DNA of 64,000 nt from Patescibacteria group bacterium (lineage in GTDB: Bacteria > Patescibacteriota > Minisyncoccia > Minisyncoccales > GWA2-38-27): positions 34,087 through 98,086 of the forward strand of contig JAHCRG010000003.1 of assembly GCA_020148045.1 (NCBI GenBank), given 5' to 3'. The notes under the pieces are model-generated. The model did not search any database. It saw only the letters and a program-made list of their open reading frames with translations, and had not been told where the DNA came from. Position numbers and translations under genes: made by a program. Below are positions 5,744 to 39,497 of the stretch, piece after piece. Position 1 is the stretch's first letter, and every line of letters starts with the position of its first letter.

Positions 5744-5748
5744 TAAAT

Positions 5749-6384: not shown

Positions 6385-6409
6385 AAATTAAGATTTATCA
6401 ATTAAATCT

Positions 6410-11380: not shown

Positions 11381-11563
11381 TTACTTAATTAACTTCTTAA
11401 TCTTCCTGGCAAATGGCTTGGAAACTTTAACCCATTTCCGGCCTTTTCTTTTCCTCTTACCCGTTTTTTTCGCCCGATAATGGTCCTGTCCAGTCGCTCT
11501 TCTTAGAACCTTACCGGTTTTAGTTATTTTAAAACGTTTTTTGATTGATTTTCTCGTTTTCAT
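11381..11563 (-). CDS. rpmI: 50S ribosomal protein L35
   Basis: 60-aa basic protein MKTRKSIKKRFKITKTGKVLRR; infC-rpmI-rplT operon order. Confidence 0.85.
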   Translation of the reverse strand: MKTRKSIKKRFKITKTGKVLRRATGQDHYRAKKTGKRKRKGRKWVKVSKPFARKIKKLIK

Positions 11564-20040: not shown

Positions 20041-20071
20041 TTTCTTAAGGGAATAATGATATAATAAAAAT

Positions 20072-20887: not shown

Positions 20888-20937
20888 AAAAACAGAGAAC
20901 GGGTCCCTGTTAAAGGTCTCTGTTAAACCCTTGGGTT

Positions 20938-22620
20938 ATGAAGAAATTTATTTTTATTATTATTATTTTATGTATAGCGCTGGGGGCAGCTGGGTTTTGG
21001 TATTGGCAGAGAAATCCTTACTCAAAAGAAATTTTGAAATTAGAAATTTTAGGTCCTGGAGAGGCAGCAATTTTTCAGGAAGTTGAATACACAGTGAAGT
21101 ATAAAAATAATGGCAATGTTAGATTGGAAGAGCCCCGTCTTATTTTTGAGTTCCCAGAATATACTTTACTGGAGGAGGGTCTTTCAAGAAGGCAAGAAAT
21201 AGGACCCGAAGAATTGGGAGATATCTATCCTGGTGAAGAAAAAACCCTCCAGTTTAAAGGCCGGCTTTTTGGAAAAGAGGGCGATATAAAAACAGCTAAG
21301 GCCTGGTTGAGTTACCGTCCTAAAAATCTTCAAGCTCGTTATGAATCAACCACCACTTTTACCACTGAGATTAAATTTGTGCCTTTGACTTTTGATTTTG
21401 ACCTTTCTTCAAAAATAGAGGCAGGCAGAGATTTCAAATTTTCTTTGAATTACTATTCCAGTTTAGACTACCCGCTCTCTAATTTAGGGATAAAGATTGA
21501 ATATCCTTCAGGCTTTGAATTTTTAGAAAGCGATCCTCAAGGATTGGCAAAAACCGAATGGGAACTTTCTCTTTTAAATCAAGCCGAAGGAGGAAGGGTT
21601 GAGATTACAGGAAGGTTGTCAGGGGAAGTTAAAGAACAGAAAATTTTTAAAGCTACTCTTGGAATTTGGCAAGAAGACGAGTTTGTTTTATTGAAAGAAA
21701 TAACAAGGGGCGTAGAAATTACCAGACCCCGCCTTTTCGTTTTTCAGCGAATAAATGGCCAAAGCCAATATATTGCTAATCACGGAGGTTTACTTCATTA
21801 CGAAATTTTCTTCAGAAATATTGGAGAAGAGCCTTTTACAGATTTATTTTTGGTAGCAACCCTTGGGGGCAGAGGTTTTGATCTCGAAACAGTAAAAGCT
21901 GATTCGAGTCAATTTAAAAAAGGTGATAACTCCATAATTTGGGATTGGAGAGATGTTCCTAAGCTCCGATTTTTAGGACAGGGAGAAGAAGGAAAGGTTG
22001 AATTCTGGATAAACCTAAAAGATGAGTGGGAAATTAGCAGCCCCCAAGAGAAAAATGCTATTTTAAAAAATACGGTTTTAATTTCTCAAATAAAGGAAGA
22101 ATTTGAAACAAAAATAAATTCAAAATTAGCCATTTCCCAAAGAGGTTATTATCAAGAAGAGGTCTTTGGCAATTCAGGACCCATCCCTCCAGAAGTTGGC
22201 GAAGCCACTACTTATACGATAATCTGGCAGGCAAAGAATTATTTTAATGATGTTAAAAATGTAAAAGTGAAAGCAGTTTTGCCTTCAAATGTTAGATTAA
22301 CTGGTAAAATTTTCCCCGAACAAGAATCCTCAAAATTTGCCTTTGATATTCAGAGTCGAGAGATTATCTGGATGGTCAGAGATAATCAGGTGATGGAGAC
22401 GGGGACAGGAGTTTTAAATCCAGCCCCGAATATTGCCTTTCAGGTTGCTTTAACTCCAACTTCCGGCCAAAAAGGTAAAGTTTCGCCAATTATTAAAGAG
22501 GCGATGATTACAGGTGAAGACCAATGGACAGAATCGTTTATTGAAGGAACTGATTCCGGAATAGATACTACTCTGCCAGATGATTCAACTGTTTCTTCTG
22601 GCCAGGGAATTGTCCAGTAA
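20938..22620 (+). CDS. large secreted/membrane-anchored hypothetical protein
   Basis: N-terminal TM anchor and internally repetitive beta-rich sequence; adjacent to the pilin-like gene. Confidence 0.3.
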   Translation: MKKFIFIIIILCIALGAAGFWYWQRNPYSKEILKLEILGPGEAAIFQEVEYTVKYKNNGNVRLEEPRLIFEFPEYTLLEEGLSRRQEIGPEELGDIYPGEEKTLQFKGRLFGKEGDIKTAKAWLSYRPKNLQARYESTTTFTTEIKFVPLTFDFDLSSKIEAGRDFKFSLNYYSSLDYPLSNLGIKIEYPSGFEFLESDPQGLAKTEWELSLLNQAEGGRVEITGRLSGEVKEQKIFKATLGIWQEDEFVLLKEITRGVEITRPRLFVFQRINGQSQYIANHGGLLHYEIFFRNIGEEPFTDLFLVATLGGRGFDLETVKADSSQFKKGDNSIIWDWRDVPKLRFLGQGEEGKVEFWINLKDEWEISSPQEKNAILKNTVLISQIKEEFETKINSKLAISQRGYYQEEVFGNSGPIPPEVGEATTYTIIWQAKNYFNDVKNVKVKAVLPSNVRLTGKIFPEQESSKFAFDIQSREIIWMVRDNQVMETGTGVLNPAPNIAFQVALTPTSGQKGKVSPIIKEAMITGEDQWTESFIEGTDSGIDTTLPDDSTVSSGQGIVQ

Positions 22621-22627
22621 AGTTAAT

Positions 22628-22859
22628 ATTGACAAAAACATTATAAAAAGCTATCTTTTATAATATAGTATGGTTCTTTTCGCAAAAAAGGGTGATTGTG
22701 GCGCCGGTAAGCTACGCTTATTCATAAAGGTGTTGAGATTACAACTACGGTAATTCGCAAAAAAACCTTAACGCCCTTTCACTCTTTTTATAAACCATGC
22801 CCTGCATTTTCGCTTTCTGGCTCCCCCCACCGGAAGGTTGTAGAATGCAGGGTTTTTTT
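22628..22859 (+). promoter_or_regulatory. long glyQS 5' leader: promoter (TTGACA…) plus ~200-nt structured region ending in a strong intrinsic terminator
   Basis: TTGACA at 22628. Nested hairpin CCCTGCAT…(CUUUCUGG-CUCCCCCCA-CCGGAAGG)…ATGCAGGG followed by T7 at 22853-22859. The glyQS ATG is 39 nt downstream. Confidence 0.45.
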
Positions 22860-22897
22860 CTCTTGCCCTGTAATCTCTAACGGGGTAAAATATAATA

Positions 22898-24226
22898 ATG
22901 GCTGACTTAATGCAGAAAATTGTATCTTTTAGCAAAAGAAGAGGTTTTATTTTTCCTTCGTCTGAGATTTATGGGGGGTTTGGCTCTTGTTATGATTTTG
23001 GGCCTTTGGGAGTGGAGATGAAAAATAATATTAAGAGGGCTTGGTGGGATGAAATGCTCAAGAAGCACGACGATATTGTTGGCTTGGATGCGGCAATTTT
23101 AATGAGTCCAAAAGTTTGGAAAGCATCTGGTCACTTAACTGCTGGCTTTGCTGATGAATTAGTAGAGTGTAAGAGTTGTCACCATCGTTTTAGAAAAGAT
23201 TTTTTAAAGGGGAACAAATGCCCAGATTGCGGAGGTATCTTAACAAAGCCAAAAAAGTTTAATTTAATGATGAAAACCTTTGTGGGACCTGTTGAAGATA
23301 AGGCAGCGGCAACTTATTTGAGAGCTGAGACCTGTCAAGGGATTTACGTTAATTTTAAAAATGTTTTGCAAACAATGCGCTTGAAAATCCCTTTTGGAAT
23401 AGCCCAGATTGGTAAAGCATTTAGAAACGAGATTACTCCAAAAGATTTTATTTACAGAACTCGGGAATTTGAGCAAATGGAAATGCAGTGGTTTTGTCAT
23501 CCTAAAGAAACTTCAAGACTTTTTGATTATTGGAAAAAAGAGCGACTAAACTGGTATTTAAATTTAGGAATTAAAAAAGAGAATTTGAGAATAAAAGAGG
23601 TTTCTGAAAAAGAACTTCCTCATTACGCAAAGAGGGCTTTGGATATTGAATATAAATTTCCTTTTGGTTGGCAGGAAATTGAAGGAATTCATAATCGAGT
23701 GGATTGGGATTTATCTAATCACTCAAAACACAGCGGAGAGGATTTGAAATATTATGATGAGGAAACCAAGAAAAAATATTTCCCTCATATTATTGAAACC
23801 TCGGTTGGGGTAGATAGGTCTCTTTTTGCTTTTTTGTGTGATGCTTATCAGGAGGTAAGCGGCGGCAGGACAAAAACTACTAAAGCTGCAAAAGAGGTTG
23901 AGGTTTTGCTTCGCCTCCATAAATCTTTAGCTCCAATCAAAGTAGCAATTTTGCCATTGGTGAAAAATAAACCAAAATTGGTAAAGAAAGCAAAAGAAGT
24001 TTATCAGATATTAAAGCCCTATTTTATGTGTCAGTATGATGAGATTGGTTCAATTGGCAGAAGATACAGAAGGCAAGATGAAATAGGGACTATTTTTGCC
24101 CTGACCGTGGATTTTGAAAGCTTAGAGCAGGATGATGTAACTGTTAGAAACCGCGACACAATGAAGCAAAAAAGAGTAAAAATTAAAGATTTAGCAGAAG
24201 TTTTAAAAGAAAAACTAGGAAAATGA
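22898..24226 (+). CDS. glyQS: glycyl-tRNA synthetase (alpha2 type)
   Basis: RRGFIFPSSEIYGGFGSCYDFGPLG (class II motif 1 region), FRNEITP motif 2, and C-terminal anticodon-binding domain. Confidence 0.85.
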   Translation: MADLMQKIVSFSKRRGFIFPSSEIYGGFGSCYDFGPLGVEMKNNIKRAWWDEMLKKHDDIVGLDAAILMSPKVWKASGHLTAGFADELVECKSCHHRFRKDFLKGNKCPDCGGILTKPKKFNLMMKTFVGPVEDKAAATYLRAETCQGIYVNFKNVLQTMRLKIPFGIAQIGKAFRNEITPKDFIYRTREFEQMEMQWFCHPKETSRLFDYWKKERLNWYLNLGIKKENLRIKEVSEKELPHYAKRALDIEYKFPFGWQEIEGIHNRVDWDLSNHSKHSGEDLKYYDEETKKKYFPHIIETSVGVDRSLFAFLCDAYQEVSGGRTKTTKAAKEVEVLLRLHKSLAPIKVAILPLVKNKPKLVKKAKEVYQILKPYFMCQYDEIGSIGRRYRRQDEIGTIFALTVDFESLEQDDVTVRNRDTMKQKRVKIKDLAEVLKEKLGK

Positions 24227-24885
24227 AAGTTGCGGCTATTGTTCCGGCTTTAAATGAAGAGGCAAATATAGGGAATGTTTTGAAAGTGCTTTTAAAATCA
24301 AAAGATCTTGATGAAGTTATTTTAGTGGATGATGGGTCTGAAGATAGGACAGCTGAAATAGGTGAAGAGATGGGGGTTAAAGTGATAAAATTGCCTAAAA
24401 AAGGAGGCAGTGGTAAGGGGAATGCAATGAAAAAAGGAGTAGAAAGCACTGATGCTGATATAATAGCTTTTTTTGATGCTGATTTGATTGGTTTGACAAC
24501 AGAGCACGTTTCTTTAGTAGTCCGGCCTGTTTTAGAAAATAGGGCTGTAATGTGCGTTGGAGCAAGGCAACGTTACGGGGGTCTACCAAAGCTTTTTATT
24601 AAAATTGATCCTCTTTTAGCTGTTGGAGGAGAAAGAGCAATGAAGCGTTTTGTATTTGAGAGCATACCTGAAAGATTTATCCAGGGATTTGCTGTTGAAA
24701 CATCTTTGAATTATTACTGCCGGAAGAAAAAATTAAAAGTGCTTTATCCTGAATTAAAAGATTTAACCGTGGTAATAAAAGAGAAAAAATGGGGTTTGCT
24801 AAAAGGGTTTAAAAATAGAATGAAAATGTTTTGGCAACTTTTTAAAATTAGAGTTTTAATATTAACGAATAGAAAAGAGTTTTAA
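24223..24885 (+). CDS. family 2 glycosyltransferase (dolichyl-phosphate mannose / glucosyl-3-phosphoglycerate synthase-like)
   Basis: VPALNEEANI…LVDDGSEDRT…FDADL (GT-A DxD). Confidence 0.65.
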   Translation: MKVAAIVPALNEEANIGNVLKVLLKSKDLDEVILVDDGSEDRTAEIGEEMGVKVIKLPKKGGSGKGNAMKKGVESTDADIIAFFDADLIGLTTEHVSLVVRPVLENRAVMCVGARQRYGGLPKLFIKIDPLLAVGGERAMKRFVFESIPERFIQGFAVETSLNYYCRKKKLKVLYPELKDLTVVIKEKKWGLLKGFKNRMKMFWQLFKIRVLILTNRKEF

Positions 24886-24897
24886 CTAGGTGAATAA

Positions 24898-26163
24898 ATG
24901 TTTAAAAAAACTACTCTTAAAAATGGTTTAAGGATTATTACTGTTCCTCAAAAAAGCACTCAAGCAGTGACTGTTTTGGTATTGACTGGGACTGGTTCCA
25001 AATATGAGAAAAAGGAAATAAATGGTATTTCTCATTTTTTAGAACATATGCTCTTCAAGGGGACAAAAAAACGTCCCAATACCATAGCTATTGCTGAAAC
25101 TTTAGATAAGGTGGGCGGAATTTACAATGCTTTTACCGGTGAAGAATATACTGGCTATTTTGCAAAGCTTGATGTCAGCCACTTAGACTTAGCCTTAGAT
25201 TGGGTCTCTGATATTTTTTTAAACTCCAAATTGGATCCCTTAGAAATTAAAAGAGAAAAAGGGGTAATTCTTGAAGAAATTAATATGCTCTTTGATAACC
25301 CGATGTCTTATGCCCAAATTTTATGGAGAGAACTTTTATACGGAGACCAGCCTGCTGGCTGGAATATTGCCGGAACTAAAGAAACCGTGCTCGGTATTTC
25401 TCGCCAGAAATTGGCAGATTATCTGAGAACTCAATATGTTGCTCCAAATACTATTGTTTGCATAGCAGGGAAAATAAAAGATTCTCAGATAATAGAGAAA
25501 GTTAAAAAATATTTTTCCAAGATAAAAAGTGCCGGAGTTCTAAAAAAACCGAAAGTTATTGAAAGACAAACAGGACCGGAATGTCTTTTAAAAGAAAGAA
25601 AGACCGACCAAACTCACCTTTGCTTGGGAGTGAGAGTATATAATCTTTTTCATCCTTTGAGATACGCTCAAGAGATTTTGGGAATAATTTTAGGTGGAAT
25701 GATGAGCTCAAGATTATTTATTAGGGTAAGAGAAAGATTGGGCTTGGCTTATTATATAACCACTGAGGTTTCGGTTGACCCGGATACCGGATTTTTGGTT
25801 ACTCAGGCAGGTGTTGATAATGAAAATGTTGAGAAAGCTATCATAACTATCTTGAAAGAATACAAAAAAATTTCTCAGAAAAAAATCCCGGCTGCTGAAC
25901 TGAAAAAAGTAAAAGATTATATCAAAGGGAAAATGACCCTACAGTTGGAAGCTTCTGATGCTCAGGCATCTTTTTACGGAATACAGGAACTTCTGGAAAA
26001 TAAAATTTTAACCCAAAAAGAAATCTATGCTAAAATTAATAAAGTAAGTACTGATGATATCTTGAAACTTAGCAAAGATATTTTTCAGCCCCAAAAATTA
26101 AATTTAGCCCTGATAGGACCGTTTAAAAATAAAAAGAGGTTCGAAAAACTATTAAAGATTTAA
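24898..26163 (+). CDS. M16 family zinc peptidase (insulinase-like)
   Basis: HFLEHMLFKGT inverted zinc motif HxxEH. Confidence 0.8.
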   Translation: MFKKTTLKNGLRIITVPQKSTQAVTVLVLTGTGSKYEKKEINGISHFLEHMLFKGTKKRPNTIAIAETLDKVGGIYNAFTGEEYTGYFAKLDVSHLDLALDWVSDIFLNSKLDPLEIKREKGVILEEINMLFDNPMSYAQILWRELLYGDQPAGWNIAGTKETVLGISRQKLADYLRTQYVAPNTIVCIAGKIKDSQIIEKVKKYFSKIKSAGVLKKPKVIERQTGPECLLKERKTDQTHLCLGVRVYNLFHPLRYAQEILGIILGGMMSSRLFIRVRERLGLAYYITTEVSVDPDTGFLVTQAGVDNENVEKAIITILKEYKKISQKKIPAAELKKVKDYIKGKMTLQLEASDAQASFYGIQELLENKILTQKEIYAKINKVSTDDILKLSKDIFQPQKLNLALIGPFKNKKRFEKLLKI

Positions 26164-26164
26164 T

Positions 26165-27196
26165 ATGGATCAGACAGAAAAAATTTTAGACATCTCTTGG
26201 AGAACAATTCTGAAAATTTCTATTGCTGCTGTTTGCTTTTACGTCCTTTATTCAGTTAAAGATATTCTGATTTGGTTTATTTTTGCTTTGACAATTTCAG
26301 TTTTGTTTAATCCAGCCATTAATTTTTTACAGAAAAGAAAAATCCCCCGTATTCTTGGGGTCGTGCTTGTTTATGTTGGCTTCTTTGGGCTCTTAAGTCT
26401 TTTAGTTTATTTAGTAACCCCTTTATTTGCTTCTGAAATTCAAGGGTTTTTGCAATCTTTCCCCCAGTATTTTGAAAAAATTTCTCCTCTCCTAAAAGGG
26501 CTTGGCTTTCAGGCATTTGAAAATATTGAGAGTTTTCTAAAAGCTCTGGGAGGTACTTTGGAAGGAATGGCAGATAATATTTTTAGTGTTTTATTTACTA
26601 TTTTTGGTGGAGTTTTCACAACTTTATTTGTTATTATTACGGCAATTTTTCTTTCTTTGGAAGAAAAAACGATTGAGAAGGCTTTAATTCTTCTTTTCCC
26701 CAAAAAATATGAAGTGCAGGTTTTAGATGTTTGGACAAGATGCCAAAAAAAAGTTTCAGGTTGGTTTGGGGCAAGGATATTAGCTTGTTTATTTGTTGGA
26801 GTTGTTTCTTATGTTGCTTTTTTACTTTTTAATGTAAAATATCCTTTCACTTTAGCATTGTTCGCCGGTGTCTTTAATTTTATTCCTTATGTGGGGCCTC
26901 TTTTAACCGGTATTATCCTCTTTTTGATTATTTTCCCAACGGAGGCGTTTAAAGCTATTTTTGTTCTAGTTGCTTTTGCCCTCATTCAGCAGATTGAAAA
27001 TAGTATTTTGTCTCCGATATTGATGAAAAAATTTGTTGGGCTTCCTCCTGCCTTAGTTTTAATTTCTTTAGTTGTTGGAGGAAAACTTTGGGGATTATTG
27101 GGAGCAATTTTAGCTGTTCCTTTGTCTGGAATATTATTTGAATTCCTCCGCGAATTCCTCCAAAAAAGAAAAGACAAAAAAGCCGAAGTGGTTTAG
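26165..27196 (+). CDS. AI-2E family transporter (PerM/UPF0118)
   Basis: 8-TM topology and characteristic N-terminal region. Confidence 0.6.
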   Translation: MDQTEKILDISWRTILKISIAAVCFYVLYSVKDILIWFIFALTISVLFNPAINFLQKRKIPRILGVVLVYVGFFGLLSLLVYLVTPLFASEIQGFLQSFPQYFEKISPLLKGLGFQAFENIESFLKALGGTLEGMADNIFSVLFTIFGGVFTTLFVIITAIFLSLEEKTIEKALILLFPKKYEVQVLDVWTRCQKKVSGWFGARILACLFVGVVSYVAFLLFNVKYPFTLALFAGVFNFIPYVGPLLTGIILFLIIFPTEAFKAIFVLVAFALIQQIENSILSPILMKKFVGLPPALVLISLVVGGKLWGLLGAILAVPLSGILFEFLREFLQKRKDKKAEVV

Positions 27197-27268
27197 ATAA
27201 AAACTTAAAATTATGCTAAAATAAAAGGAGGTTAAACCCTCCTTTTAAGATTATAGAATGTCTTATAT

Positions 27269-28714
27269 ATGAAAAAGTTTTATATTCCAACCAGTATTCC
27301 TTATACCAATGCCCCGCCTCATATAGGATTTGCCCTGGAGGCGGTTCAGGCAGATGTTTTGGCGCGCTATCACCGCATTTTAGGCGAGGATGTTTTTTTC
27401 TTAACTGGAACAGATGAGCACGGCTTAAAAATTAAAAAAGCAGCACAAGAAGCTGGCAAAGATCCAAAAGAATTTACTGATGAGATTTCAGCAGAATTCA
27501 AAAAATTAGAAAAAACGTTAAACCTTTCTAACGATGATTTTATTCGGACTACTGATGAAAAAAGGCATTGGCCAACAGTAAAAAAAATTTGGTTAAAATT
27601 AAAAGAAAACGGCGATATTTACAAAAAAAAGTATAAAGGTTTTTATTGTTCTGGTTGTGAGGCATTTATTACAGAAAAAGATTTAGTGGATGGTAAATGT
27701 CCAAATCATCAGATAGAGCCAGAATTAGTTGAAGAAGAAAACTATTTCTTTCGTCTTTCTAAATATTTGAATCAGATTGAAAAATCAATAAAAAAAGATG
27801 AATTGAAAATTATTCCCGAAACCAGAAAGAATGAAGTTTTAGGTTATATTAAAACAGGTTTTGGGGATATTAGTTTTTCCAGAGCAAAAGAAAAATATTG
27901 GGGATTCCCAGTCCCAGATGATGATACCCAAATAATCTATGTTTGGGGAGATGCGCTCCCGAATTATATTTCAGCCTTAGGTTTCGCAGAGAATGGTGAC
28001 AAATTCAAGAAATACTGGCCAGCTGATGTACATTGTATCGGAAAAGATATATTAAAATTCCATGCTTTAATTTGGCCAGGTATGCTTTTATCTTTAGGAT
28101 TGTCATTGCCAAAGAAGATATTTGTTCATGGGTTTATTACTGTGGGGGGACAGAAGATGTCAAAATCTTTGGGGAACGTGATCGATCCTTTTGAGCTTGT
28201 TGAGAAATATGGAATAGATGCTGTTAGATATTATCTCTTGCGGGAAATTCCTCCAACCGAGGACGGCGACTTTACTTATGAAAAATTTGAGCAAAGATAT
28301 AATTCTGATTTAGCATCTGGAATCGGAAACTTGCTTGCCAGAGTTAGAGTAATGGCAGAAGGGGTAAGTTTTAAAGAAGATAATCTTAAAATCGTAGAGC
28401 CCAAAATAAAAGAAACCCGGGGAAATTATAAAAAAGCATTAGAAGAATTTAAATTCAATGAAGCATTGAGAGCAATTTGGGATTTGATTAGTTTTTGTGA
28501 CAAATATATTGAAAAGGAAAGGCCTTGGGAGAAAAAAGAAAATTCTCCTCAAGTTTTAGGTAATTTATTAGTTATTTTGAATAATATAGCTGAATTACTT
28601 CAGCCGTTTTTACCAGAGACCTCAGAGAGAATTACTAAGGGAATAGAGAGAGATGAAAAATCTGGAAAATTTAAAAACAAAAGAGGCAAACTGTTATTTC
28701 CAAGACTTGACTAA
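27269..28714 (+). CDS. metG: methionyl-tRNA synthetase (short form)
   Basis: PYTNAPPHIGFA (HIGH), KMSKSLGN, zinc knuckle CSGCEAF…C. Confidence 0.9.
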   Translation: MKKFYIPTSIPYTNAPPHIGFALEAVQADVLARYHRILGEDVFFLTGTDEHGLKIKKAAQEAGKDPKEFTDEISAEFKKLEKTLNLSNDDFIRTTDEKRHWPTVKKIWLKLKENGDIYKKKYKGFYCSGCEAFITEKDLVDGKCPNHQIEPELVEEENYFFRLSKYLNQIEKSIKKDELKIIPETRKNEVLGYIKTGFGDISFSRAKEKYWGFPVPDDDTQIIYVWGDALPNYISALGFAENGDKFKKYWPADVHCIGKDILKFHALIWPGMLLSLGLSLPKKIFVHGFITVGGQKMSKSLGNVIDPFELVEKYGIDAVRYYLLREIPPTEDGDFTYEKFEQRYNSDLASGIGNLLARVRVMAEGVSFKEDNLKIVEPKIKETRGNYKKALEEFKFNEALRAIWDLISFCDKYIEKERPWEKKENSPQVLGNLLVILNNIAELLQPFLPETSERITKGIERDEKSGKFKNKRGKLLFPRLD

Positions 28715-28792
28715 TATTTTTGCTTGTTTAAAATTAAAATTAGCGTGCTTAATAATTAAATAAAGAAAGCTAAAAATGAAAGGAGGTCTTTT

Positions 28793-29134
28793 ATGGATGG
28801 GTTCCAGGAATTGAGAGAGAAATTAAGGAAGGTTATCCTTGGCGAAAAAGATAAGATTAGTAAAGTGTTTCCAAAACTTAATTTAAATGATGGAAACCTT
28901 TCTTCTTTTACTAAAAAAGTTTTATCAGAAGCTGAGTATTTTCGTTTTAGCTGTCGGCTTAGTGATGAAATAGAATCTCCCGAGGAGCTGCGAGAGAAAT
29001 ATAGTGACGGAAGACATTTCGCTGTTGAAGATAACAAAGTGATAATATCAATTGATGATGAAAAGAAGCTCCACGATTTTTTAAGCGCTAGCAATGAATG
29101 GGTTAAAGATGGAAGCGTTGAACTTGTTATTTAA
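28793..29134 (+). CDS. hypothetical protein (113 aa)
   Basis: Good RBS AAAGGAGG; the antisense ORF 28756..29094 is judged to be a shadow. Confidence 0.35.
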   Translation: MDGFQELREKLRKVILGEKDKISKVFPKLNLNDGNLSSFTKKVLSEAEYFRFSCRLSDEIESPEELREKYSDGRHFAVEDNKVIISIDDEKKLHDFLSASNEWVKDGSVELVI

Positions 29135-29159
29135 CAAAGATATTGAAAGGAGGATTTGA

Positions 29160-29273
29160 ATGGGACAGAGAAATAGACGTCCTAGTCAGAAGAAAACGCA
29201 TTGTAATATCTGTAACAGAAGAACACTTACTAAGAAAAACGGTAATTGTGAAAGGTGTGGTAAGCCAAAGTAA
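29160..29273 (+). CDS. small zinc-ribbon protein (37 aa, CxxC…CxxC)
   Basis: Ideal RBS GAAAGGAGGATTTGA ATG. MGQRNRRPSQKKTHCNICNRRTLTKKNGNCERCGKPK*. Not in the ORF track because it is under 60 aa. Confidence 0.45.
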   Translation: MGQRNRRPSQKKTHCNICNRRTLTKKNGNCERCGKPK

Positions 29274-29427
29274 AGGGGAATATCCCTATGGCTATAAAGC
29301 GCTTCTTATCTTAACGGAGCGCTTTTTCACTTGTTAAAAAACTTGACAAAAATTTATGGATTTGGTATGATGTAGGCAATCAAAGACTGTTTTTTTAACA
29401 AGTGAATATGGATATAGAATTTCAGAA
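29260..29427 (+). repeat. 168-bp direct repeat copy 1 (terminator hairpin + sigma70-like promoter TTGACA-17-TATGAT + 5' UTR)
   Basis: Matches 30795..30961 at all but 3 substitutions and a 1-bp indel. Hairpin AGCGCTtc…ggAGCGCT+T5 at 29298-29326; TTGACA 29343-29348; TATGAT 29366-29371. Confidence 0.85.
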
Positions 29428-29524
29428 AAGAGGTGAAAGTGAAGCAAAAGTGTTTTTTAAGGTTTTGTAAAATGATAGGAATATTGTTAGGAAGATTAAC
29501 AGAGTTCTTTGGAGGAATGAGAAA

Positions 29525-30760
29525 ATGTTTACTTCATGCAAATGGCCTCAATTAATAACTTGCAAACAAAGCAGTAAATTAACAATGCCGTTACTTGTAT
29601 TGCTTGCCATCTTTCTATTCGGCCGATCGGCCGAGGCACAATACGGCGGCGGCACCGGAGACCCCAGTGACCCTTACCTGATTTACACGGCCGAGCAGGT
29701 GAATGCAATTGGGGCCGAGCCCAACGATTGGGACAGGCACTTTAAGCTCATGGCAGATATTGATTTGAGCGGCGTTACGGGAACAGATTTTAACATCATC
29801 GGATACTATCGAACTTGGCAAGACCACAAGCCATTTACCGGCGTTTTTGACGGCAGCGGCAAGATAATCTCAAACTTCAGCTACACTTCTACGGATACAG
29901 ACTACATAGGACTTTTCGGGTACGTTATGGGAGGAAATGCAGTAATTAAGGATTTGGGATTGATTGACCCAAATATTGATGCGGGAACAGGAAATTGCGT
30001 TGGCTCGCTGGTCGCAATCAATATTGGCACAATCACCAACTGCTATGCCCAGGGCGGCAGCGTTTCTGGCAATGACGAAGTCGGCGGCCTGGTGGGATGG
30101 AATAAGTGGAGAACAATCTCCGACTGCTATTCAACCAGCTACGTTTCGGGAAATTGGCGTGTCGGCGGCCTGGCGGGATTCAATGATTGTGCCCCAATCA
30201 CCAACTGCTATTCAACCGGCAGCGTTTCAGGAACAACAGATGTCGGCGGCCTGGTGGGAAATAATGAGGGCACAATCACCAACTGCTATTCAACCAGCTA
30301 TGTTTTGGGAAATCGGCGTGTCGGTGGCCTTGTGGGAGAAAATGGGTACGAAGGCTACTTGGGGAGCACATATGGTACGATATCCAACTGCTATTCGAGC
30401 GGCAGCGTTTTGGGAGATGGTTATGTCGGAGGCCTGGCGGGATATAATCGTTCTGGCACAATCATCAACTGCTATTCAACCAGCTACGTTTCGGGAGATA
30501 GTTATGTCGGTGGCCTGGTGGGAGAAAATTTTTGGGGTGGTGAGGTTATGGCTTCTTTCTGGGATATTGAAACCAGCGGACAGACAGCGAGTGCTGGGAC
30601 GGGTAAAACAACGGCCGAGATGCAGACCGAGAGCACGTTTTCTGATGCTGGCTGGGATTTTCTAGTCGAGAGCGTAAATGGCACCGAGGATATCTGGTGG
30701 ATTCTCGAAGGTCAGGATTATCCCCGGCTGAGTTGGGAGCTCATCGGAGACGGCTCGTAG
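29525..30760 (+). CDS. secreted GLUG-motif repeat protein (GC-rich)
   Basis: Signal-peptide-like MPLLVLLAIFLFGRSAEA. About six tandem ~27-aa repeats TI(T/S)NCYS…V(S/L)G…VGGL(V/A)G, the GLUG motif. GC content is far above flanking DNA. Confidence 0.65.
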   Translation: MFTSCKWPQLITCKQSSKLTMPLLVLLAIFLFGRSAEAQYGGGTGDPSDPYLIYTAEQVNAIGAEPNDWDRHFKLMADIDLSGVTGTDFNIIGYYRTWQDHKPFTGVFDGSGKIISNFSYTSTDTDYIGLFGYVMGGNAVIKDLGLIDPNIDAGTGNCVGSLVAINIGTITNCYAQGGSVSGNDEVGGLVGWNKWRTISDCYSTSYVSGNWRVGGLAGFNDCAPITNCYSTGSVSGTTDVGGLVGNNEGTITNCYSTSYVLGNRRVGGLVGENGYEGYLGSTYGTISNCYSSGSVLGDGYVGGLAGYNRSGTIINCYSTSYVSGDSYVGGLVGENFWGGEVMASFWDIETSGQTASAGTGKTTAEMQTESTFSDAGWDFLVESVNGTEDIWWILEGQDYPRLSWELIGDGS

Positions 30761-30794
30761 CTATTCATAGCTACGGTTGTTGCCAACAGCAAGA

Positions 30795-30961
30795 GTAAAC
30801 CAAAGTAAAGGGGAATATCCCTACGGCTATAAAGCGCTTCTTATCTTAACGGAGCGCTTTTTCACTTGTTAAAAAACTTGACAGAAATTTATGGGTTTGG
30901 TAATGTAGGCAATCAAAGACTGTTTTTTTAACAAGTGAATATGGATATAGAATTTCAGAAA
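30795..30961 (+). repeat. 168-bp direct repeat copy 2 (terminator + promoter TTGACA-17-TAATGT + 5' UTR)
   Basis: See copy 1. Hairpin 30833-30861; TTGACA 30878-30883. Confidence 0.85.
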
Positions 30962-30977
30962 TCAGAAAGGAGAAAAA

Positions 30978-31823
30978 ATGATTAGCAAACAAACAAATAC
31001 AATCAGAATCTTGGTAGTAGCCTGTTTGATTTTATGTTGTCTCTATCTTATTGGTGTTGTGAGAAGAGAGGCAAGGGCGTTAAATTTACGCAACGTGACC
31101 GACAGTCTTATTTTGTCTATTGAGTTTACGACTGAGCCAGGTATGGATTATATTCAGGCTAAAGCTGATTATGTGGAGATATTATATAAATATGTCAGAC
31201 ACATGGAGAATCGGCATATACCCTTGTTGTTTTTCTTTTCAAGGAGTAATATTGCGGGAGACCTGAAACGTGTAGTGAGGGATTTGGAAAAAGCCGATGA
31301 ACTAAACGCTCGTGAGGCTATAGAAAAGGCTTCAGAAGCAATCGCTGAATTTTTCACCAAAACGAAGCCGTTCACAGATGAATCAATTATTACCTTTGAA
31401 TCCGAAGTTATATCTGAGGAAATACAAACTGCTATCAAGGATTCGCTTCAGGAAGCGCATGAGAAAGCAGAGACATGTGCCAATGATTCAAATGTGGCTA
31501 ATTTTGAAGCGCTATATCGGGCCAACAGAAAAGCGATAGTTTATTTGTACCTTGCTCGTTTTGAGTATCAAGAAATCGTTGATGAAGAAAAACTTAGAAC
31601 GTTTCGAACAGATCTAAACGCGACTTGCTATCGGAACGAGGCTTTGCAAGATTCTGATACCGTGGAAATCAGTGAGGAAGAGTGTTCGCGGCTTACTGTA
31701 TATTATGGTAGCGAGCTTCGCCGTCTTGGGATTTTGTATGCGATCATAGACAATAATATACAGCAAGCTTATGATTTATTACAAACAGAAATGGCTGCAA
31801 GAAAAGCTATCCCCGATATTTAA
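30978..31823 (+). CDS. membrane-anchored hypothetical protein (281 aa, GC-rich)
   Basis: RBS AAAGGAGAAAAAATG, one N-terminal TM, acidic helical rest; driven by repeat copy 2. Confidence 0.4.
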   Translation: MISKQTNTIRILVVACLILCCLYLIGVVRREARALNLRNVTDSLILSIEFTTEPGMDYIQAKADYVEILYKYVRHMENRHIPLLFFFSRSNIAGDLKRVVRDLEKADELNAREAIEKASEAIAEFFTKTKPFTDESIITFESEVISEEIQTAIKDSLQEAHEKAETCANDSNVANFEALYRANRKAIVYLYLARFEYQEIVDEEKLRTFRTDLNATCYRNEALQDSDTVEISEEECSRLTVYYGSELRRLGILYAIIDNNIQQAYDLLQTEMAARKAIPDI

Positions 31824-31923
31824 TTCATAGATATACCGTACTTAAAGCGTGGGAATATTGATTAGTCAATACTCATCCGCGCTTTTTATTTGAAATCATT
31901 TTCGTCTTTGATAAGATAGAGTA

Positions 31924-32742
31924 ATGCTAATAGATACTCATGCGCATCTTAATTTTAATGCATTTAGAGGTGACTTAGATGAAGTCATTGAGCGTTCTTT
32001 GGCTGAAAATGTTTGGGTGATAAATGTTGGCTCAAAATATGAGACAAGCAAAAGAGCAGTTGAGATTGCTGAAAAATATGAAAAAGGTATATATGCAACA
32101 ATTGGGCTTCATCCTATTTATTCAACAGCTGGAATAGTCAAAATAAAAACTGATCCCGAAGAGGGTAATTTTGTAGCGAGCGGAGAGGATTTTGATAACG
32201 AAAGATATAAAGAGCTTGCGAAGTCAGAAAAAGTAGTAGCAATTGGAGAGATTGGTTTGGATTATTATTACAAGCCGAAAACAAAAAGAAAACTTGAATT
32301 ATTTAAAGAAAAACAGAGAACAGTTCTCTGGAAACAATTAGATTTAGTTAAGGAATTAAATCTGCCAGTAATTTTCCATTGTAGAATGGCCCATAATGAC
32401 TTGCTGGAGATTTTGAAAAATCATCAAGTCCCAGGCGTTATCCATTGCTTTACTGGAAATTGGAACCAAGCAAAAGAATATTTAGAAATGGGATTTTATT
32501 TGGGAATTAATGGGATAATTTACAAATTAGATTTAAAAGAGGTGATTGAGAAAGCACCTTTGGAGAAAATTCTAATAGAAACCGATTGTCCTTATCTTAC
32601 GCCACCACAAGCAGGAGTTGAACGTAACGAGCCGATTTTTGTAAAATACATTGCTCAAGACATTGCCAGAATAAAAAACTTAGATTTCCAAAAAGTGGCT
32701 GAAACTACCTCCCAAAACGCCAAAAATTTATTCGGAATATAA
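31924..32742 (+). CDS. tatD: TatD family hydrolase
   Basis: MLIDTHAHLNF…GEIGLDYYY…HCF…ETDCPYL metal-ligand pattern. Confidence 0.8.
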   Translation: MLIDTHAHLNFNAFRGDLDEVIERSLAENVWVINVGSKYETSKRAVEIAEKYEKGIYATIGLHPIYSTAGIVKIKTDPEEGNFVASGEDFDNERYKELAKSEKVVAIGEIGLDYYYKPKTKRKLELFKEKQRTVLWKQLDLVKELNLPVIFHCRMAHNDLLEILKNHQVPGVIHCFTGNWNQAKEYLEMGFYLGINGIIYKLDLKEVIEKAPLEKILIETDCPYLTPPQAGVERNEPIFVKYIAQDIARIKNLDFQKVAETTSQNAKNLFGI

Positions 32743-35591: not shown

Positions 35592-36968
35592 ATGATTAAA
35601 AAAGTAGTTATTGCTGCTGCGGGTCAGGGGACTCGCATGCTTCATCTTACCAAAGAAAAATCTAAACATCTTATTAGGGTCAAAAAAAGACCCTTTTTAG
35701 CTTATCTTTTAGATAATCTTTTTTTAGCAGGTTATAGAGATTTGATTTTGGTGACTGGTTTTAAAGAAGAGTTAATAGAAGAATTTTTAAATAGATACAA
35801 ACCGCCTCTTAAAAGTTTAAGAAAGAGTCAGTATAAAATTAGGATGGTCAGTCAGTATGAGATTTTAGGACCAAAAGATAAAATGTATGGCACTGCCTGT
35901 CCCTTGATGTGTGTTAAAGACATTGTTAAAAAAAGCCAATTTATTTATCTTTGCGGAGATAATCTTTATTCTGTTAGAGATTTAAAAGCAATGAATATTG
36001 GAGGAAATCATAGTTATGTCGCCGGTATTTATCAAAAAAATCCTGAAAAATATGGTGTTCTTGTTGGAGATGATGGATTTTTATTAAAAATTGTTGAAAA
36101 GCCAAAAGAGTTTATAGGTAATTTAGTTAATACCGGCCTTTATAAATTTACCTTTGATATTTTTGATAAGCTTGGAAAAATTAAGAAATCTCCTCGGGGC
36201 GAGTACGAAATTACAGATGCTATTAATCTTTTGGCAAGAAAAAAGAAAGTGAAAATTCAGAAAATTAAGGATTTTTGGTTGGATTTTGGCAATCCGGCAG
36301 ATATAATAAAGATTTCTTACTTTTTAAGGTCTTTTAAAAAGTTTAAAGAACTTTTCTGGAAACACAAAGATTTTGAAATTATTTCTTACCGGGCGAGAGA
36401 TGTAGTTGAAAAAGCTGTAGAATTTCTTGAAAGGGGACAGGTTGTAGTTTGTCCTACAGATACTGTCTATGGACTTTTGGCTGATGCCACTAATGATAAA
36501 GCAGTAGAGAAAGTTTTTGAAATAAAGAGAAGAGATAAGAAAAAAGCTATCCCTATTTTTGTTAAGGATATGAAGATGGCAAAAAAGCTGGCTCTGATGA
36601 ACAAAAATTTGGAAGAATTTTTGGAAGAAATTTGGCCCGGGAAAATAACAGTAGCTTTAAAAAGGAAAGAAAGGTGCAGTTTACCAAAAACATTATTTGG
36701 CCGGAAGGAAACAATTGGTCTAAGAATCCCGGATTATAAATTAGTTGCCCAAATTCTTAAAAAAATAAACAAACCTCTGACTAGCACTTCAGCTAACATT
36801 TCTGGCAGAGCTTCTTCAACAAAAATTAGAGAAATTTTAGAACAATTTGAGGAACAAGAAGTTAAACCAGATTTAATTTTGGATGCCGGCAACCTGTCAA
36901 AAAGTTTCCCTTCAACCGTAGTTGATTTTAGTGAGAAGAAACCTAAAATTTTAAGAAAGGGGAGATAA
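35592..36968 (+). CDS. fusion: sugar-phosphate nucleotidyltransferase-like N-domain + YrdC/Sua5 (TsaC) threonylcarbamoyl-AMP synthase domain
   Basis: N-terminal VIAAAGQGTRM (G-x-G-T-R NTP-transferase loop). C-terminal VVVCPTDTVYGLLADATNDKAVEKVFEIKRRDKKKAIPIF is the YrdC signature. Confidence 0.6.
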   Translation: MIKKVVIAAAGQGTRMLHLTKEKSKHLIRVKKRPFLAYLLDNLFLAGYRDLILVTGFKEELIEEFLNRYKPPLKSLRKSQYKIRMVSQYEILGPKDKMYGTACPLMCVKDIVKKSQFIYLCGDNLYSVRDLKAMNIGGNHSYVAGIYQKNPEKYGVLVGDDGFLLKIVEKPKEFIGNLVNTGLYKFTFDIFDKLGKIKKSPRGEYEITDAINLLARKKKVKIQKIKDFWLDFGNPADIIKISYFLRSFKKFKELFWKHKDFEIISYRARDVVEKAVEFLERGQVVVCPTDTVYGLLADATNDKAVEKVFEIKRRDKKKAIPIFVKDMKMAKKLALMNKNLEEFLEEIWPGKITVALKRKERCSLPKTLFGRKETIGLRIPDYKLVAQILKKINKPLTSTSANISGRASSTKIREILEQFEEQEVKPDLILDAGNLSKSFPSTVVDFSEKKPKILRKGR

Positions 36969-37102
36969 TAGTATATCTCCCGGCAAAATCCCTGACAAAT
37001 CTGTCAACCTATGACACAGTGTAAGTGTTATGGTGAAGTAGTTATAACTTCGCAAAATGTTAATTAAAAACCAATAGTAGATAAATATCAAGGAGATGAA
37101 AA

Positions 37103-37336
37103 ATGAAAGTAGGAACGAAAGTAGAAATGAAAGTAAAAATGATTTTGATGCCAGGAATTTTCTTTCTGATGCTCGCGGTAGCATTAATTTATATAACTTT
37201 TTCCGGGGAAGCATCTGATCCGAGTAAAACAGCGATTGCTGGGATTGTGGCAGCTGTGCCTGGTATAACTTTCACAAGTATTGGACTTTTATGGATTAAG
37301 GAAGCCGTTAAGAAAGGTATTAAGAAAGCCACATGA
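37103..37336 (+). CDS. small membrane protein (77 aa)
   Basis: RBS CAAGGAGATGAAAAATG; two TM helices. The 5' end contains a 12-nt x3 tandem repeat. Terminator at 37371-37398. Confidence 0.4.
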   Translation: MKVGTKVEMKVKMILMPGIFFLMLAVALIYITFSGEASDPSKTAIAGIVAAVPGITFTSIGLLWIKEAVKKGIKKAT

Positions 37337-37420
37337 TAAAGTACATTTCAAACACTGCACATTACACCAGAGCCGAGTAGGTGATGCTCGGCCTTTTTAT
37401 TTTTGATTTTTTAATATTTT

Positions 37421-37458
37421 GAGAACTGTTCCTGTAGAGCTCTACGAGAACAGTTCTC
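37421..37458. repeat. 38-bp near-perfect palindrome GAGAACTGTTC-CTGTAGAGCTCTACGA-GAACAGTTCTC
   Basis: Contains CTCTACGAGAACAGTTCTC, also present at 56768-56790; the GAGAACnGTTCTC core is also at 32314-32330. Confidence 0.6.
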
Positions 37459-37494
37459 TTAACATTAATCGAAAATGTAGTAAAATAAAAGAAT

Positions 37495-38736
37495 ATGGAG
37501 CTTAGTAAAATCGACCCAAAAATTGCAGAGCTTATTGAAAAAGAAAAAGAAAGGCAGAAAACTACGCTGGAGATGATTCCTTCTGAAAATCATACCTCTC
37601 CAGCGGTACGAGAGGCTTTGGGTTCTGTTTTAACTGATAAATACGCTGAAGGATATCCTAAAAAAAGATATTATGCTGGCTTGGAATTCTATGATAAGAT
37701 TGAAGCCCTTTGCCAGGAAAGAGCAAAGAAGATATTTAAAGTAGCTCATGTTAATGTTCAACCCTATTCTGGCTCACCAGCAAATCAAGCAGTTTATTTC
37801 GCTCTTTTAGAGCCAAGAGATACTGTAATGGGAATGTCTCTTCCTCATGGAGGCCATTTAACCCATGGCTGGAAAGTAAGTTTTTCCGGAAAGTATTTTA
37901 AATCTGTTCAGTATGGAGTTGATAAAAAAACAAATTTGCTTAATTATCAAGAAATAGGAAAGTTAGCTAAAAAAGCAAAGCCAAAACTTATTTGGGTTGG
38001 AGCTACTGCTTATCCTCGGATTTTTGACTGGAAAAAATTAGGCATGATTGCTGATTCAGTCAGGGCTTATCTTGTAGCTGATATCGCTCATATCGCAGGA
38101 TTAATTGTTGCTGGAGTTCATCCCAGTCCTGTTCCTTATGTTCATATTGTTACAACTACTACTCATAAAACTTTAAGAGGTCCTAGGGGTGGAATGATAA
38201 TGGTTACTAGAAAAGGATTAAAAAAAAATCCAGAGCTTACTCAAAAGATTGATAAGTCAGTTTTTCCTGGTCTTCAAGGTGGTCCTCATGAAAATAATAT
38301 AGCTGCTATTGCTGTTTGCTTAAAAGAAGCATCAAAACCAGGTTTTAAAAGATATGGAAAGCAGATTGTGAAAAATTGTAAGATATTAGCTTCAGAACTT
38401 TTAAAATATGGCTTTGATTTAGTCACTGCTGGCACTGATAATCATTTAATTTTAATTGATTTGAGGAATAAGAAAATTTCAGGAAAAGAAGCTCAAAACC
38501 GGCTGGAAAAAGCTGGCATTACTGTTAATAAAAATACTATTCCTTTTGATCCCAATCCTCCATTTAATCCTTCTGGAATTCGCTTAGGCACACCAGCTAT
38601 AACAACCAGGGGAATGAAAGAAAAAGAAATGAGAAAAATTACTTTTTGGATTAATGAAGTTATTTCTGATGCTAAAAATTGTTTAAGAGTTAGGAAAGAA
38701 GTTAAAAAACTTTGTAGAAAATTTCTTTTGCCATGA
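37495..38736 (+). CDS. glyA: serine hydroxymethyltransferase
   Basis: LEMIPSENHTSPAV…TTTTHKTLRGPRGG PLP-lysine region. Confidence 0.9.
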   Translation: MELSKIDPKIAELIEKEKERQKTTLEMIPSENHTSPAVREALGSVLTDKYAEGYPKKRYYAGLEFYDKIEALCQERAKKIFKVAHVNVQPYSGSPANQAVYFALLEPRDTVMGMSLPHGGHLTHGWKVSFSGKYFKSVQYGVDKKTNLLNYQEIGKLAKKAKPKLIWVGATAYPRIFDWKKLGMIADSVRAYLVADIAHIAGLIVAGVHPSPVPYVHIVTTTTHKTLRGPRGGMIMVTRKGLKKNPELTQKIDKSVFPGLQGGPHENNIAAIAVCLKEASKPGFKRYGKQIVKNCKILASELLKYGFDLVTAGTDNHLILIDLRNKKISGKEAQNRLEKAGITVNKNTIPFDPNPPFNPSGIRLGTPAITTRGMKEKEMRKITFWINEVISDAKNCLRVRKEVKKLCRKFLLP

Positions 38737-39497
38737 AGATTCTAGATGGGAAAAAAATATCTAAGAAGATTTTGAAGAACCTTAAAAGAGAAATAGAAAA
38801 AAAGGGACTGAAATTGAAATTAGCTGTAATTTTTGTTGGAAAGGACCCAGCTTCAAAGATCTTTATTAGAGAAAAAAAGAAAGCTTGTGAGTTTGTTAGG
38901 ATTGATTTTGAATTATTTAGATTTCCAGCAAGGATTAGTAACTCAGTACTGAAAAAAGAAATTAAGAAAATTGTCAAAAACCCTACTATCTCTGGAGTTG
39001 TAATTCAATTGCCTTTGCCAGAGAAATTTAATGTTCAAGAATTCTTAAGCCTTGTTCCTTCAGAAAAAAATATTGAAGCTGTTTCGCCGGTTGTTTGCGC
39101 TATAGATTATATTTTGAGGAGGTATAAAATTTCTTTGAAAAGAAAAACCATAGTTTTAGTAGGACACGGAAGATTGGTTGGGAGACCCTTGGCTAAATGG
39201 TTTAAAAATAAAAAAATCAAGTTCTACAATATTAATAAAATCAAAAAAGCAGATATTATAATTTCCGGAGTGGGCAGACCGGGTTTTATTACCGGAGATA
39301 TGGTTAAAAAAGGAGCAGTAATAATTGATGTTGGTTTTTCTCACAATAAAAAGAGGAAAGCAGCCGGCGATGTAGATTTCAAAAGCGTCTCTAAAAAAGC
39401 AAGCTATATTACTCCAGTTCCCGGAGGCGTTGGTCCTATGACCATTGCTTGCTTGCTTAAAAACTTAGTATGGACTTATACTTATTCCAACAAATAA
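38733..39497 (+). CDS. folD: methylenetetrahydrofolate dehydrogenase/cyclohydrolase
   Basis: ILDGKKISKKI…LAVIFVGKDPASKIF…VVIQLPLP…VPGGVGPMT. Confidence 0.75.
   Translation: MKILDGKKISKKILKNLKREIEKKGLKLKLAVIFVGKDPASKIFIREKKKACEFVRIDFELFRFPARISNSVLKKEIKKIVKNPTISGVVIQLPLPEKFNVQEFLSLVPSEKNIEAVSPVVCAIDYILRRYKISLKRKTIVLVGHGRLVGRPLAKWFKNKKIKFYNINKIKKADIIISGVGRPGFITGDMVKKGAVIIDVGFSHNKKRKAAGDVDFKSVSKKASYITPVPGGVGPMTIACLLKNLVWTYTYSNK

Follow-up and report, generated by a model that had tools for sequence, protein, structure and literature searches.

Introduction

Variable surface-protein loci with conserved 5′ expression cassettes are found in the vlp and vsp families of Mycoplasma, and variable islets between core genes, the chromosomal integration hotspots, are reportedly the subject of comparative-genomics work by Oliveira, Touchon and Rocha from 2017. 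Here we describe a locus with likenesses to both: the interval between metG and tatD in a window of 64,000 nucleotides (nt) from a Patescibacteria group bacterium (contig JAHCRG010000003.1 of assembly GCA_020148045.1, positions 34,087 to 98,086). This interval carries a gene for a GLUG-repeat protein and two copies of a module made up of a terminator, a promoter and a leader. In our view it is likely that this module serves natively for expression in a hypervariable slot for cargo genes, and that the GLUG gene replaced an earlier foreign gene pair within it. An initial reading of the letters, made without database searches (the sequence-only reading), had proposed a laterally acquired gene, cassette-like behaviour and one promoter copy per cargo, and this interpretation is right in outline, being partly supported by the results below. 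The hosts and gene-flow routes of most lineages of the Patescibacteria (the candidate phyla radiation, CPR) are unknown, and the locus provides a compact, alignable case of repeated capture.

Results

A variable slot between metG and tatD

The window was compared with related loci and contigs, which are designated by L numbers (e.g., L007, L091, and L092). A scan for methionyl-tRNA synthetase (MetRS), in which one genome was kept per species, gave 80 related loci carrying the labels Nealsonbacteria, Staskawiczbacteria or Patescibacteria; the clade with the slot is described here as Patescibacteria related to metagenome-assembled genomes (MAGs) labelled Nealsonbacteria and Staskawiczbacteria. 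The gene order AI-2E transporter (up343), metG, tatD and leuS is kept across the 80 loci. Both metG and tatD are present in 65 of these, and the gap between them spans 0 to 6.9 kb with varied content of open reading frames (ORFs): the spacing is at most 110 nt in 31 of the 65, and the other 34 have an insert of 170-6900 nt. Conserved core flanks with intervening genes that differ among relatives are the pattern of a chromosomal hotspot, and the differing cargo of the 65 loci bears out the cassette-like locus that had been proposed.

The gap of the window is 3.2 kb long and holds four ORFs (the 113-aa, zinc-ribbon, GLUG and 281-aa ORFs), none of which was found in any of the 80 related loci. 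The island, first described as having two genes, is therefore the whole metG-tatD gap with its four lineage-specific ORFs. Housekeeping genes flank the slot on both sides and the mean GC of the window is about 35%.

The GLUG gene

A GLUG-motif protein had been predicted at 29525, and the Pfam profile Glug (PF07581) agrees, scoring 87.3 bits against a gathering cut-off of 20.5 in five stretches. Of 7799 matches to homologues, the best cover 85-97% of the query at 56-62% identity, and the best relatives with source names are from Planctomycetota, Phycisphaerae and Sedimentisphaerales, with one Zixibacteria MAG and one MAG labelled Gammaproteobacteria in addition. The pairwise alignment spans residues 17-405, and because the closest homologue is two such modules in tandem, the window protein can be regarded as one complete module, in a family whose members often have two. 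Its terminus (...DYPRLSWELIGDGS, then the stop) falls where the homologues run on (...YPRLTWQFVIGDFDGDG...), thus suggesting that the donor gene was truncated at the junction and that a stop codon arose there. With a GC content of 0.503 (z 5.3) and a third-position GC (GC3) of 0.541 (z 8.1), the gene is a strong outlier among the ORFs of the window. The composition, the Planctomycetota nearest relatives and the absence from the 80 syntenic relatives support the view that the GLUG gene was horizontally acquired, as the sequence-only reading had it.

The Planctomycetota GLUG proteins resemble the window protein in having a putative signal peptide, an N-terminal domain, GLUG repeats and a C-terminal FWD..TSG..YPRLxWE block. 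They differ from it in length (470-720 aa) and in possessing a second module or a dockerin-like tail, whereas the window protein is a single module of 411 aa encoded, unlike theirs, by an AT-rich Patescibacteria genome. A literature search gave nothing on this locus and nothing tying GLUG to Planctomycetota or CPR. The GLUG and 281-aa proteins are identical to NCBI KJA13_00325 and KJA13_00330 (Patescibacteria group bacterium, 111-kb contig); exact-protein look-ups with GLUG (as 411 aa, 391 aa and P0001) and with the zinc-ribbon ORF gave no match on record.

A Shine-Dalgarno (SD) sequence, GGAGG (29511-29515), precedes the ATG at 29525, which opens a charged n-region, whereas the start annotated by NCBI has neither. 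By inspection and Kyte-Doolittle hydropathy, K6, K14 and K18 are followed by LLVLLAIFLFG (residues 23-33, 3.15) and then by AEA/Q. This N-terminus looks like a Sec signal, from which we infer export of the protein; hydrophobic N-terminal segments had been expected in both this and the 281-aa protein, and both have them (Table 1). The internal DNA repeats of about 80 bp had been called near-identical, which does not hold: the five or six copies are only 64-82% alike (TRF period 81, 3.4 copies, 74% matches), and they are the coding repeats of the GLUG motif. The 233-aa ORF at 29964-30665, which is read in another frame of the gene, is no gene of its own but a by-product of the GC-rich repeats.

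Replacement of an earlier cargo

The homology of the window to L091 and L092, of which L092 is the closest relative (AI-2E transporter 97.7% identical), stops at 29504, 21 nt before the GLUG ATG, such that the SD of GLUG lies beyond its end. It restarts at 30760-30806, where 47 nt have 85-89% DNA identity to the end of the oxidoreductase gene of these two loci. The remnant, LFIATVVANSKSKPK with its stop, fits the C-terminus of the Patescibacteria oxidoreductase (...GMLFIATVVASSKSKTKWYKMKE), and the Planctomycetota version (...GMLFIETVLASTKSKQKW...) fits less well. The remnant and the flank homology together imply that an ancestor of the window carried the isomerase-oxidoreductase pair now seen in the relatives. 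On this alignment, approximately 2.2 kb appears to have been replaced by approximately 1.25 kb carrying GLUG, with the last 15 or so oxidoreductase codons left behind.

The oxidoreductase of L091 is 77-81% identical to hundreds of proteins, and those with source names are of the Planctomycetota/Sedimentisphaerales. As both GLUG and the oxidoreductase have their matches in the Planctomycetota, the slot would therefore have received genes from a single donor phylum on two or more occasions.

Anatomy of the expression module

The two direct repeats (copies A and B) reported as 168 bp long are real and 96% identical, but they differ by four substitutions (A coordinates 29264, 29289, 29349, and 29360) and one 2-nt indel (29368-29369) and not by three substitutions. 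A 42-nt probe allowed up to three mismatches found only copies A and B in the window, with none expected by chance. With regard to a dispersed repeat, there are two copies in the 64 kb, one or two per slot in relatives and one elsewhere in L082. Upstream of 29260 the identity of A and B is only about 55% over 22 nt, and the upstream boundary is thus sharp; it sits within the terminal codons (GKPK and the stop) of the 37-aa CxxC...CxxC ORF, as the sequence-only reading had noted.

Both copies have the terminator hairpin that had been predicted, followed by a U-tract (-12.9 kcal/mol, z about -3.3; ViennaRNA), and a promoter whose -35/-10 spacing lies within 16-18 nt. A near-consensus promoter had been claimed for each; this is true of copy A, but in copy B the -10 box reads TAATGT and not TATGAT because the 2-nt indel falls inside it, and a consensus scan did not list it. 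Judged by their -10 boxes the two promoters would be unequal in strength. Homologous modules elsewhere allow three of the A/B differences to be polarised, and at all three copy B is ancestral and copy A derived; the TG insertion at 29368-29369, which yields the near-consensus -10 box, is derived with respect to copy B, L091, L092 and L007.

A perfect 16-bp inverted repeat brackets each promoter. Its arms are spaced 47-49 nt apart and contain GTTAAAA/TTTTAAC; L091 and L007 have them in imperfect form, and L008, L010 and L082 lack them. The repeat could be an operator pair. A role as an RNA or DNA pairing element was rejected, the changes in L007 and L091 not being compensatory.

The region 29319-29504, which runs into the leader, is 80-84% identical to L091 and L092. 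The leader contains a short upstream open reading frame (uORF) which in the window (29433-29555) has 40 aa, begins MKVKQK and overlaps the GLUG start; in L091, L092 and L007 it has 7-9 aa (MEQKLFC, MKKKLSYS, and MKVKQKIVL, each followed by a stop), and where the other copies have the uORF start, copy B is followed by the ATG of the 281-aa gene. The leader was rejected as a structured RNA, as its untranslated region folds with z about -1 and RNAalifold gives -3.5 kcal/mol with no compensatory pairs in four sequences. An Rfam scan of 28500-32500 gave nothing beyond a chance microRNA match on the terminator hairpin, and a module scan of viral contigs gave 0 matches.

Module homologues and cargo in relatives

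Homologues of the module were sought by BLASTN, with an nhmmer profile and by a metagenome scan with a conserved 24-mer. They stand at the same slot position in L007, L008, L010, L088, L091 and L092, and the related Patescibacteria hold zero, one or two module copies in the slot before differing cargo (Table 1). Two copies per locus also occur in L092, L007 and L010, which accords with the earlier proposal of a promoter module before each cargo. All eleven homologous copies, from eight genomes, lie in one orientation and have TTGACA and TGnTAnnnT in common, and TTTTTTAACAA is also conserved across the copies. The end of the leader (...AGATTAACAGAG) is common to different cargos, namely the isomerase of L091, the secreted p191 of L092 and GLUG in the window. 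The cargo genes of the relatives have a GC of about 0.50, compared with 0.31-0.34 in the flanks.

In identity, window copies A and B (96%) and the two L010 copies (72%) are each other's closest, whereas module 1 of L092 is 90-91% identical to the window copies, above the 87% of the L092 pair itself.

The isomerase-oxidoreductase arrangement is found in at least 15 independent contigs, and this commonest cargo is cytoplasmic. The module had been linked to secreted or surface genes, and such genes do follow it in relatives (the 191-aa signal-peptide protein of L092, the pilin-type NamZ fusion of L082 and the membrane protein of L010), but the slot is not specific to surface proteins because its commonest cargo is the cytoplasmic pair. 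NamZ in the L082 fusion is an exo-beta-N-acetylmuramidase domain. In L008, the module and an intrinsic terminator stand without an ORF (11438-11560); the slot is then empty, or the two encode a small RNA some 80 nt long.

Table 1. Features of the metG-tatD slot in the window and arrangement of the slot or module in related loci
Feature or locus	Position	Strand	Remarks
metG (methionyl-tRNA synthetase)	27269..28714	+	Left conserved flank; synteny in 80 loci
113-aa ORF, lineage-specific	28793..29134	+	GC host-like; absent from all related loci
37-aa CxxC...CxxC zinc-ribbon-like ORF	29160..29273	+	Strong SD; last four codons and stop within copy A
Repeat copy A (terminator, promoter, 5′ leader module)	29260..29428	+	169 nt
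Intrinsic terminator of copy A	29296..29330	+	10-bp stem AAAGCGCUUC/GGAGCGCUUU, then U-tract; ViennaRNA
Perfect 16-bp inverted repeat around promoter A	29326-29341 / 29391-29406	.	TTCACTTGTTAAAAAA / TTTTTTAACAAGTGAA
Promoter A, TTGACA-17-TATGAT, TG extended -10	29343..29371	+	11/12 consensus matches
Leader with own SD and short uORF	29429..29524	+	Homology to relatives ends at 29504
GLUG-repeat secreted protein gene (predicted), 411 aa	29525..30760	+	NCBI annotates 391 aa starting at 29585
Gfo/Idh/MocA oxidoreductase 3′-end remnant	30761..30808	+	LFIATVVANSKSKPK and stop, in frame after GLUG stop
Repeat copy B (same terminator, promoter, leader module)	30795..30961	+	167 nt
Same perfect 16-bp inverted repeat around promoter B	30861-30876 / 30924-30939	.	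TTCACTTGTTAAAAAA / TTTTTTAACAAGTGAA
Promoter B, TTGACA-17-TAATGT, TG extended -10	30878..30906	+	Weaker -10 box; below consensus-scan threshold
281-aa membrane-anchored all-helical protein (predicted)	30978..31823	+	Hydrophobic residues 9-27
Terminator before tatD promoter	31844..31889	+	-16.9 kcal/mol, z -3.9
tatD	31924..32742	+	Right conserved flank; Pfam TatD_DNase 1.3e-76; synteny
L091 and at least 14 further contigs			metG, module, leader, 334-aa TIM-barrel isomerase, 389-aa Gfo/Idh/MocA oxidoreductase, terminator, tatD
L092			metG, module 1, isomerase, oxidoreductase, terminator, module 2 and leader, secreted 191-aa protein, tatD
L007, L087, L089			Module a, DUF3870 protein, partly decayed module b and leader, 369-aa TIM-barrel protein
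L088			Module, 369-aa TIM-barrel protein, Tat-signal TIM-barrel protein
L010			Two modules, one before a membrane protein, one before a GC-rich 236-aa ORF
L008			Module, then terminator directly; no cargo
L082	20611-21420		Module copy outside the slot, before pilin-type N-terminal methylation motif fused to NamZ

The 281-aa gene and the second module copy

Compared with L091, the stretch 30807-31882 is specific to the window and comprises the remainder of copy B, the 281-aa gene and part of the terminator; homology to L091 and L092 restarts at 31877-31883, within the terminator ahead of tatD. The left end of copy B falls in a 12-nt patch, GTAAACCAAAGT, which matches the 3′ end of the zinc-ribbon ORF at 11 of 12 positions and the oxidoreductase sequence which it interrupts at 9 of 12 (in L092), and from these matches the left end is best described as a putative microhomology junction. 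Both the GLUG and the 281-aa gene had been called GC-rich; this applies to GLUG, but the 281-aa gene (GC 0.391, z 1.5) is inside the range of the other ORFs of the window.

The AlphaFold model of the 281-aa protein opens with one long N-terminal helix, and the family has 26 known members. The contexts of its homologues in L002, L084 and L085 were rejected as related loci, being not syntenic and without the module. The L002 homologue, which is 51% identical, has as neighbours two Phage_integrase genes, a transglutaminase-core protein and a DUF87 ATPase (341-2288, 5443-8227), a setting that hints at travel of this family on mobile elements.

Other features of the slot and its neighbourhood

The 113-aa ORF has no Pfam and no PADLOC match, Pfam zinc-ribbon matches to the 37-aa ORF are weak and below threshold, and PADLOC run on all four island ORFs gave no significant match. 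In at least 12 related species (L023, L055, L037, L071, L016, L033, L066, L030, L056, L020, L034, and L029) the metG-tatD gap contains csrA, and the one compared with Pfam matched (CsrA, E 1.8e-25); in other lineages a post-transcriptional regulator thus sits in the slot. The AI-2E transporter of the window is 94-98% identical in amino acids to those of L007, L091 and L092 and the neighbouring metG 75-79% (window 26165-28714), and this mosaic divergence suggests past recombination beside the slot. Just upstream of tatD there are perfect 66-nt tandem repeats, in five copies in L007 (~7800-8190) and in two in L091 (~1400-1530, reverse strand), each unit of which includes the GC-rich hairpin CCCCCGCCAAGGCGGGGG; the window has none. 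A pilin-like protein (N_methyl and Laminin_G_3; window 20072-20887) has the highest GC (0.413) among the ORFs besides GLUG.

Discussion

The results from this study fit well with a slot in which cargo changes and the means of expression stays. The module, an intrinsic terminator with a sigma-70-type extended -10 promoter and an AU-rich leader, would be native to the slot; foreign genes would land directly downstream of module and leader and be expressed from the module promoter, transcription from which we infer from its boxes, and each added second cargo would come with its own module copy. A Planctomycetota-type, adhesin-like GLUG fragment consisting of a predicted signal peptide and one complete module probably displaced an earlier cargo by illegitimate recombination, that cargo being a TIM-barrel sugar isomerase and a Gfo/Idh/MocA oxidoreductase, itself of Planctomycetota type, and the second module copy would drive a separately acquired 281-aa membrane protein.

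As to mechanism, a combination of illegitimate and homologous recombination seems most likely. Environmental DNA would be taken up and joined illegitimately downstream of the strong native promoter and leader; joins that place an SD and ATG right behind the leader would be retained, because they are expressed; and the module copies would then offer homology for the duplication, conversion, loss or exchange of units between strains. No recombinase or transposase was found among the ten flanking ORFs tested (19315-27196, 35592-39497; some 9 kb upstream and 7 kb downstream), all of which are housekeeping, and no recombinase is annotated by Pfam beside the slot in L092 or L094. The repeats, 167 nt long and 96% identical with perfect blocks of 59 nt, could allow GLUG to be deleted in a RecA-dependent manner, and the window encodes RecO. 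Neither the deletion nor the swap of GLUG that the sequence-only reading had proposed was observed, the Logan contigs of the same run simply breaking within both repeats.

Several points weigh against this account and it should be considered with caution. Promoter use and protein production are predictions from the sequence, and the donor was assigned from best-hit names and not by phylogeny. The module was counted in the 64-kb window and may have copies elsewhere in the genome; the L082 copy lies outside the slot. The account does not explain the 80 AT-rich nt (29505-29584) that separate the leader from the GC-rich portion of GLUG. Finally, B may have arisen by duplication of A, or gene conversion may have homogenised two ancestral copies like those of L092, and the order and direction of these events are not separable.

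The last point leads to the strongest of the alternatives, in which A and B are ancestral copies whose 96% identity results from recent gene conversion and not from a duplication linked to insertion. We regard this as possible but doubtful. The closest relative, L092, already has modules before and after the isomerase-oxidoreductase pair, at positions corresponding to copies A and B, and its copies are 87% alike compared with 96% in the window. However, the ends of the window repeat are sharp, the repeat extends over a terminator specific to the window and over 12 coding nt, a span that a homology-bounded conversion tract would hardly cover, and the second copy of L092 is without the upstream inverted-repeat arm present in both window copies.

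A stronger version of the preferred reading, that of a native module with successive foreign cargos, would make module and leader a dedicated capture-and-express platform, with joins at a fixed point upstream of the SD and cargo mainly from Planctomycetota (Phycisphaerae/Sedimentisphaerales). We consider this unlikely; if true, it implies a targeted capture mechanism, and the donor could point to the lineage with which this uncultured clade of Patescibacteria is physically associated or on which it preys.

Site-specific capture of an integron-like kind, with the module and its 16-bp inverted repeat as the recombination site for cassettes, is less probable still. It would explain why a repeated element separates the cargo units, why three unrelated cargos are joined at the same point behind the leader and why an inverted repeat containing GTTAAAA/TTTTAAC brackets each promoter. 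However, neither the ten flanking ORFs tested nor the Pfam listings beside the slot in L092 and L094 include a recombinase, the units come with a promoter and terminator each, whereas integron cassettes are promoterless, and the arms of the inverted repeat have decayed in L091 and L007 with no compensating changes and are lacking altogether in L008, L010 and L082. A right junction within a gene remnant, as GLUG has, is typical of illegitimate recombination.

It is very improbable that the assembler joined a Planctomycetota GLUG gene into a Patescibacteria contig. A chimera would fit the abrupt change in composition and the lack of a record of the GLUG protein in the Logan assembly of run SRR10836662, but two precise joins would be required around exactly one complete ORF with a host-type SD and leader on its left, while its right side holds the remnant of a gene found at the same site in relatives. 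Moreover, the flanking repeat copies differ by single-nucleotide polymorphisms and an indel, two Logan contigs of that run break off within copy A and begin within copy B, as a k-mer assembler does at a true repeat, and in the relatives at least 15 independent assemblies have GC-rich cargo in this slot. An invertible (phase-variable) promoter, for which the perfect 16-bp inverted repeat around the promoter in both copies would allow the segment to flip, is the least credible of all, as the arms are merely 47-49 nt apart, to our knowledge shorter than any known invertible segment, none of the ten flanking ORFs tested is an invertase, and the eleven module copies in eight genomes have a single orientation.

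With the native module and its successive cargos as the preferred reading, oxidoreductase and GLUG point to the same donor phylum, and the locus becomes a testable lead on what these ultra-small Patescibacteria cells live with or feed on. One Nealsonbacteria strain has been reported as an epibiont of Methanothrix growing on cell lysate (bioRxiv 10.1101/2022.04.20.488981), and scavenged DNA may thus be an alternative source of the cargo. The locus also indicates a route by which a reduced genome might express new surface proteins without mobile-element machinery, and for genetic work on CPR bacteria the module offers a candidate for a strong promoter.

Among described systems, integron cassette arrays resemble the slot in having tandem cargo units split by a repeated element with inverted-repeat symmetry and cargo exchanged among relatives, but the slot has no IntI recombinase (in the ten flanking ORFs and the syntenic relatives) and no attC architecture, its units carry their own promoter and terminator, and one junction lies inside a gene remnant. 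With the Mycoplasma vlp and vsp loci it shares a conserved promoter-leader block repeated before different genes at one locus; its cargo, however, is unrelated and horizontally acquired and includes cytoplasmic enzymes, and neither a phase-variable tract nor site-specific inversion was found in the slot. The resemblance to integration hotspots lies in the conserved core flanks, metG and tatD, the differing gene content at one site and cargo which is foreign by composition and nearest relatives. Unlike these, the slot is very small (0-7 kb) and lacks an integrase, tRNA or other mobile-element hallmark, and its cargo is joined directly behind a native promoter and leader, the module being duplicated per cargo unit. 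The slot is thus an integration hotspot, unusual in its per-cargo promoter modules and in the successive Planctomycetota captures that are still visible within it.

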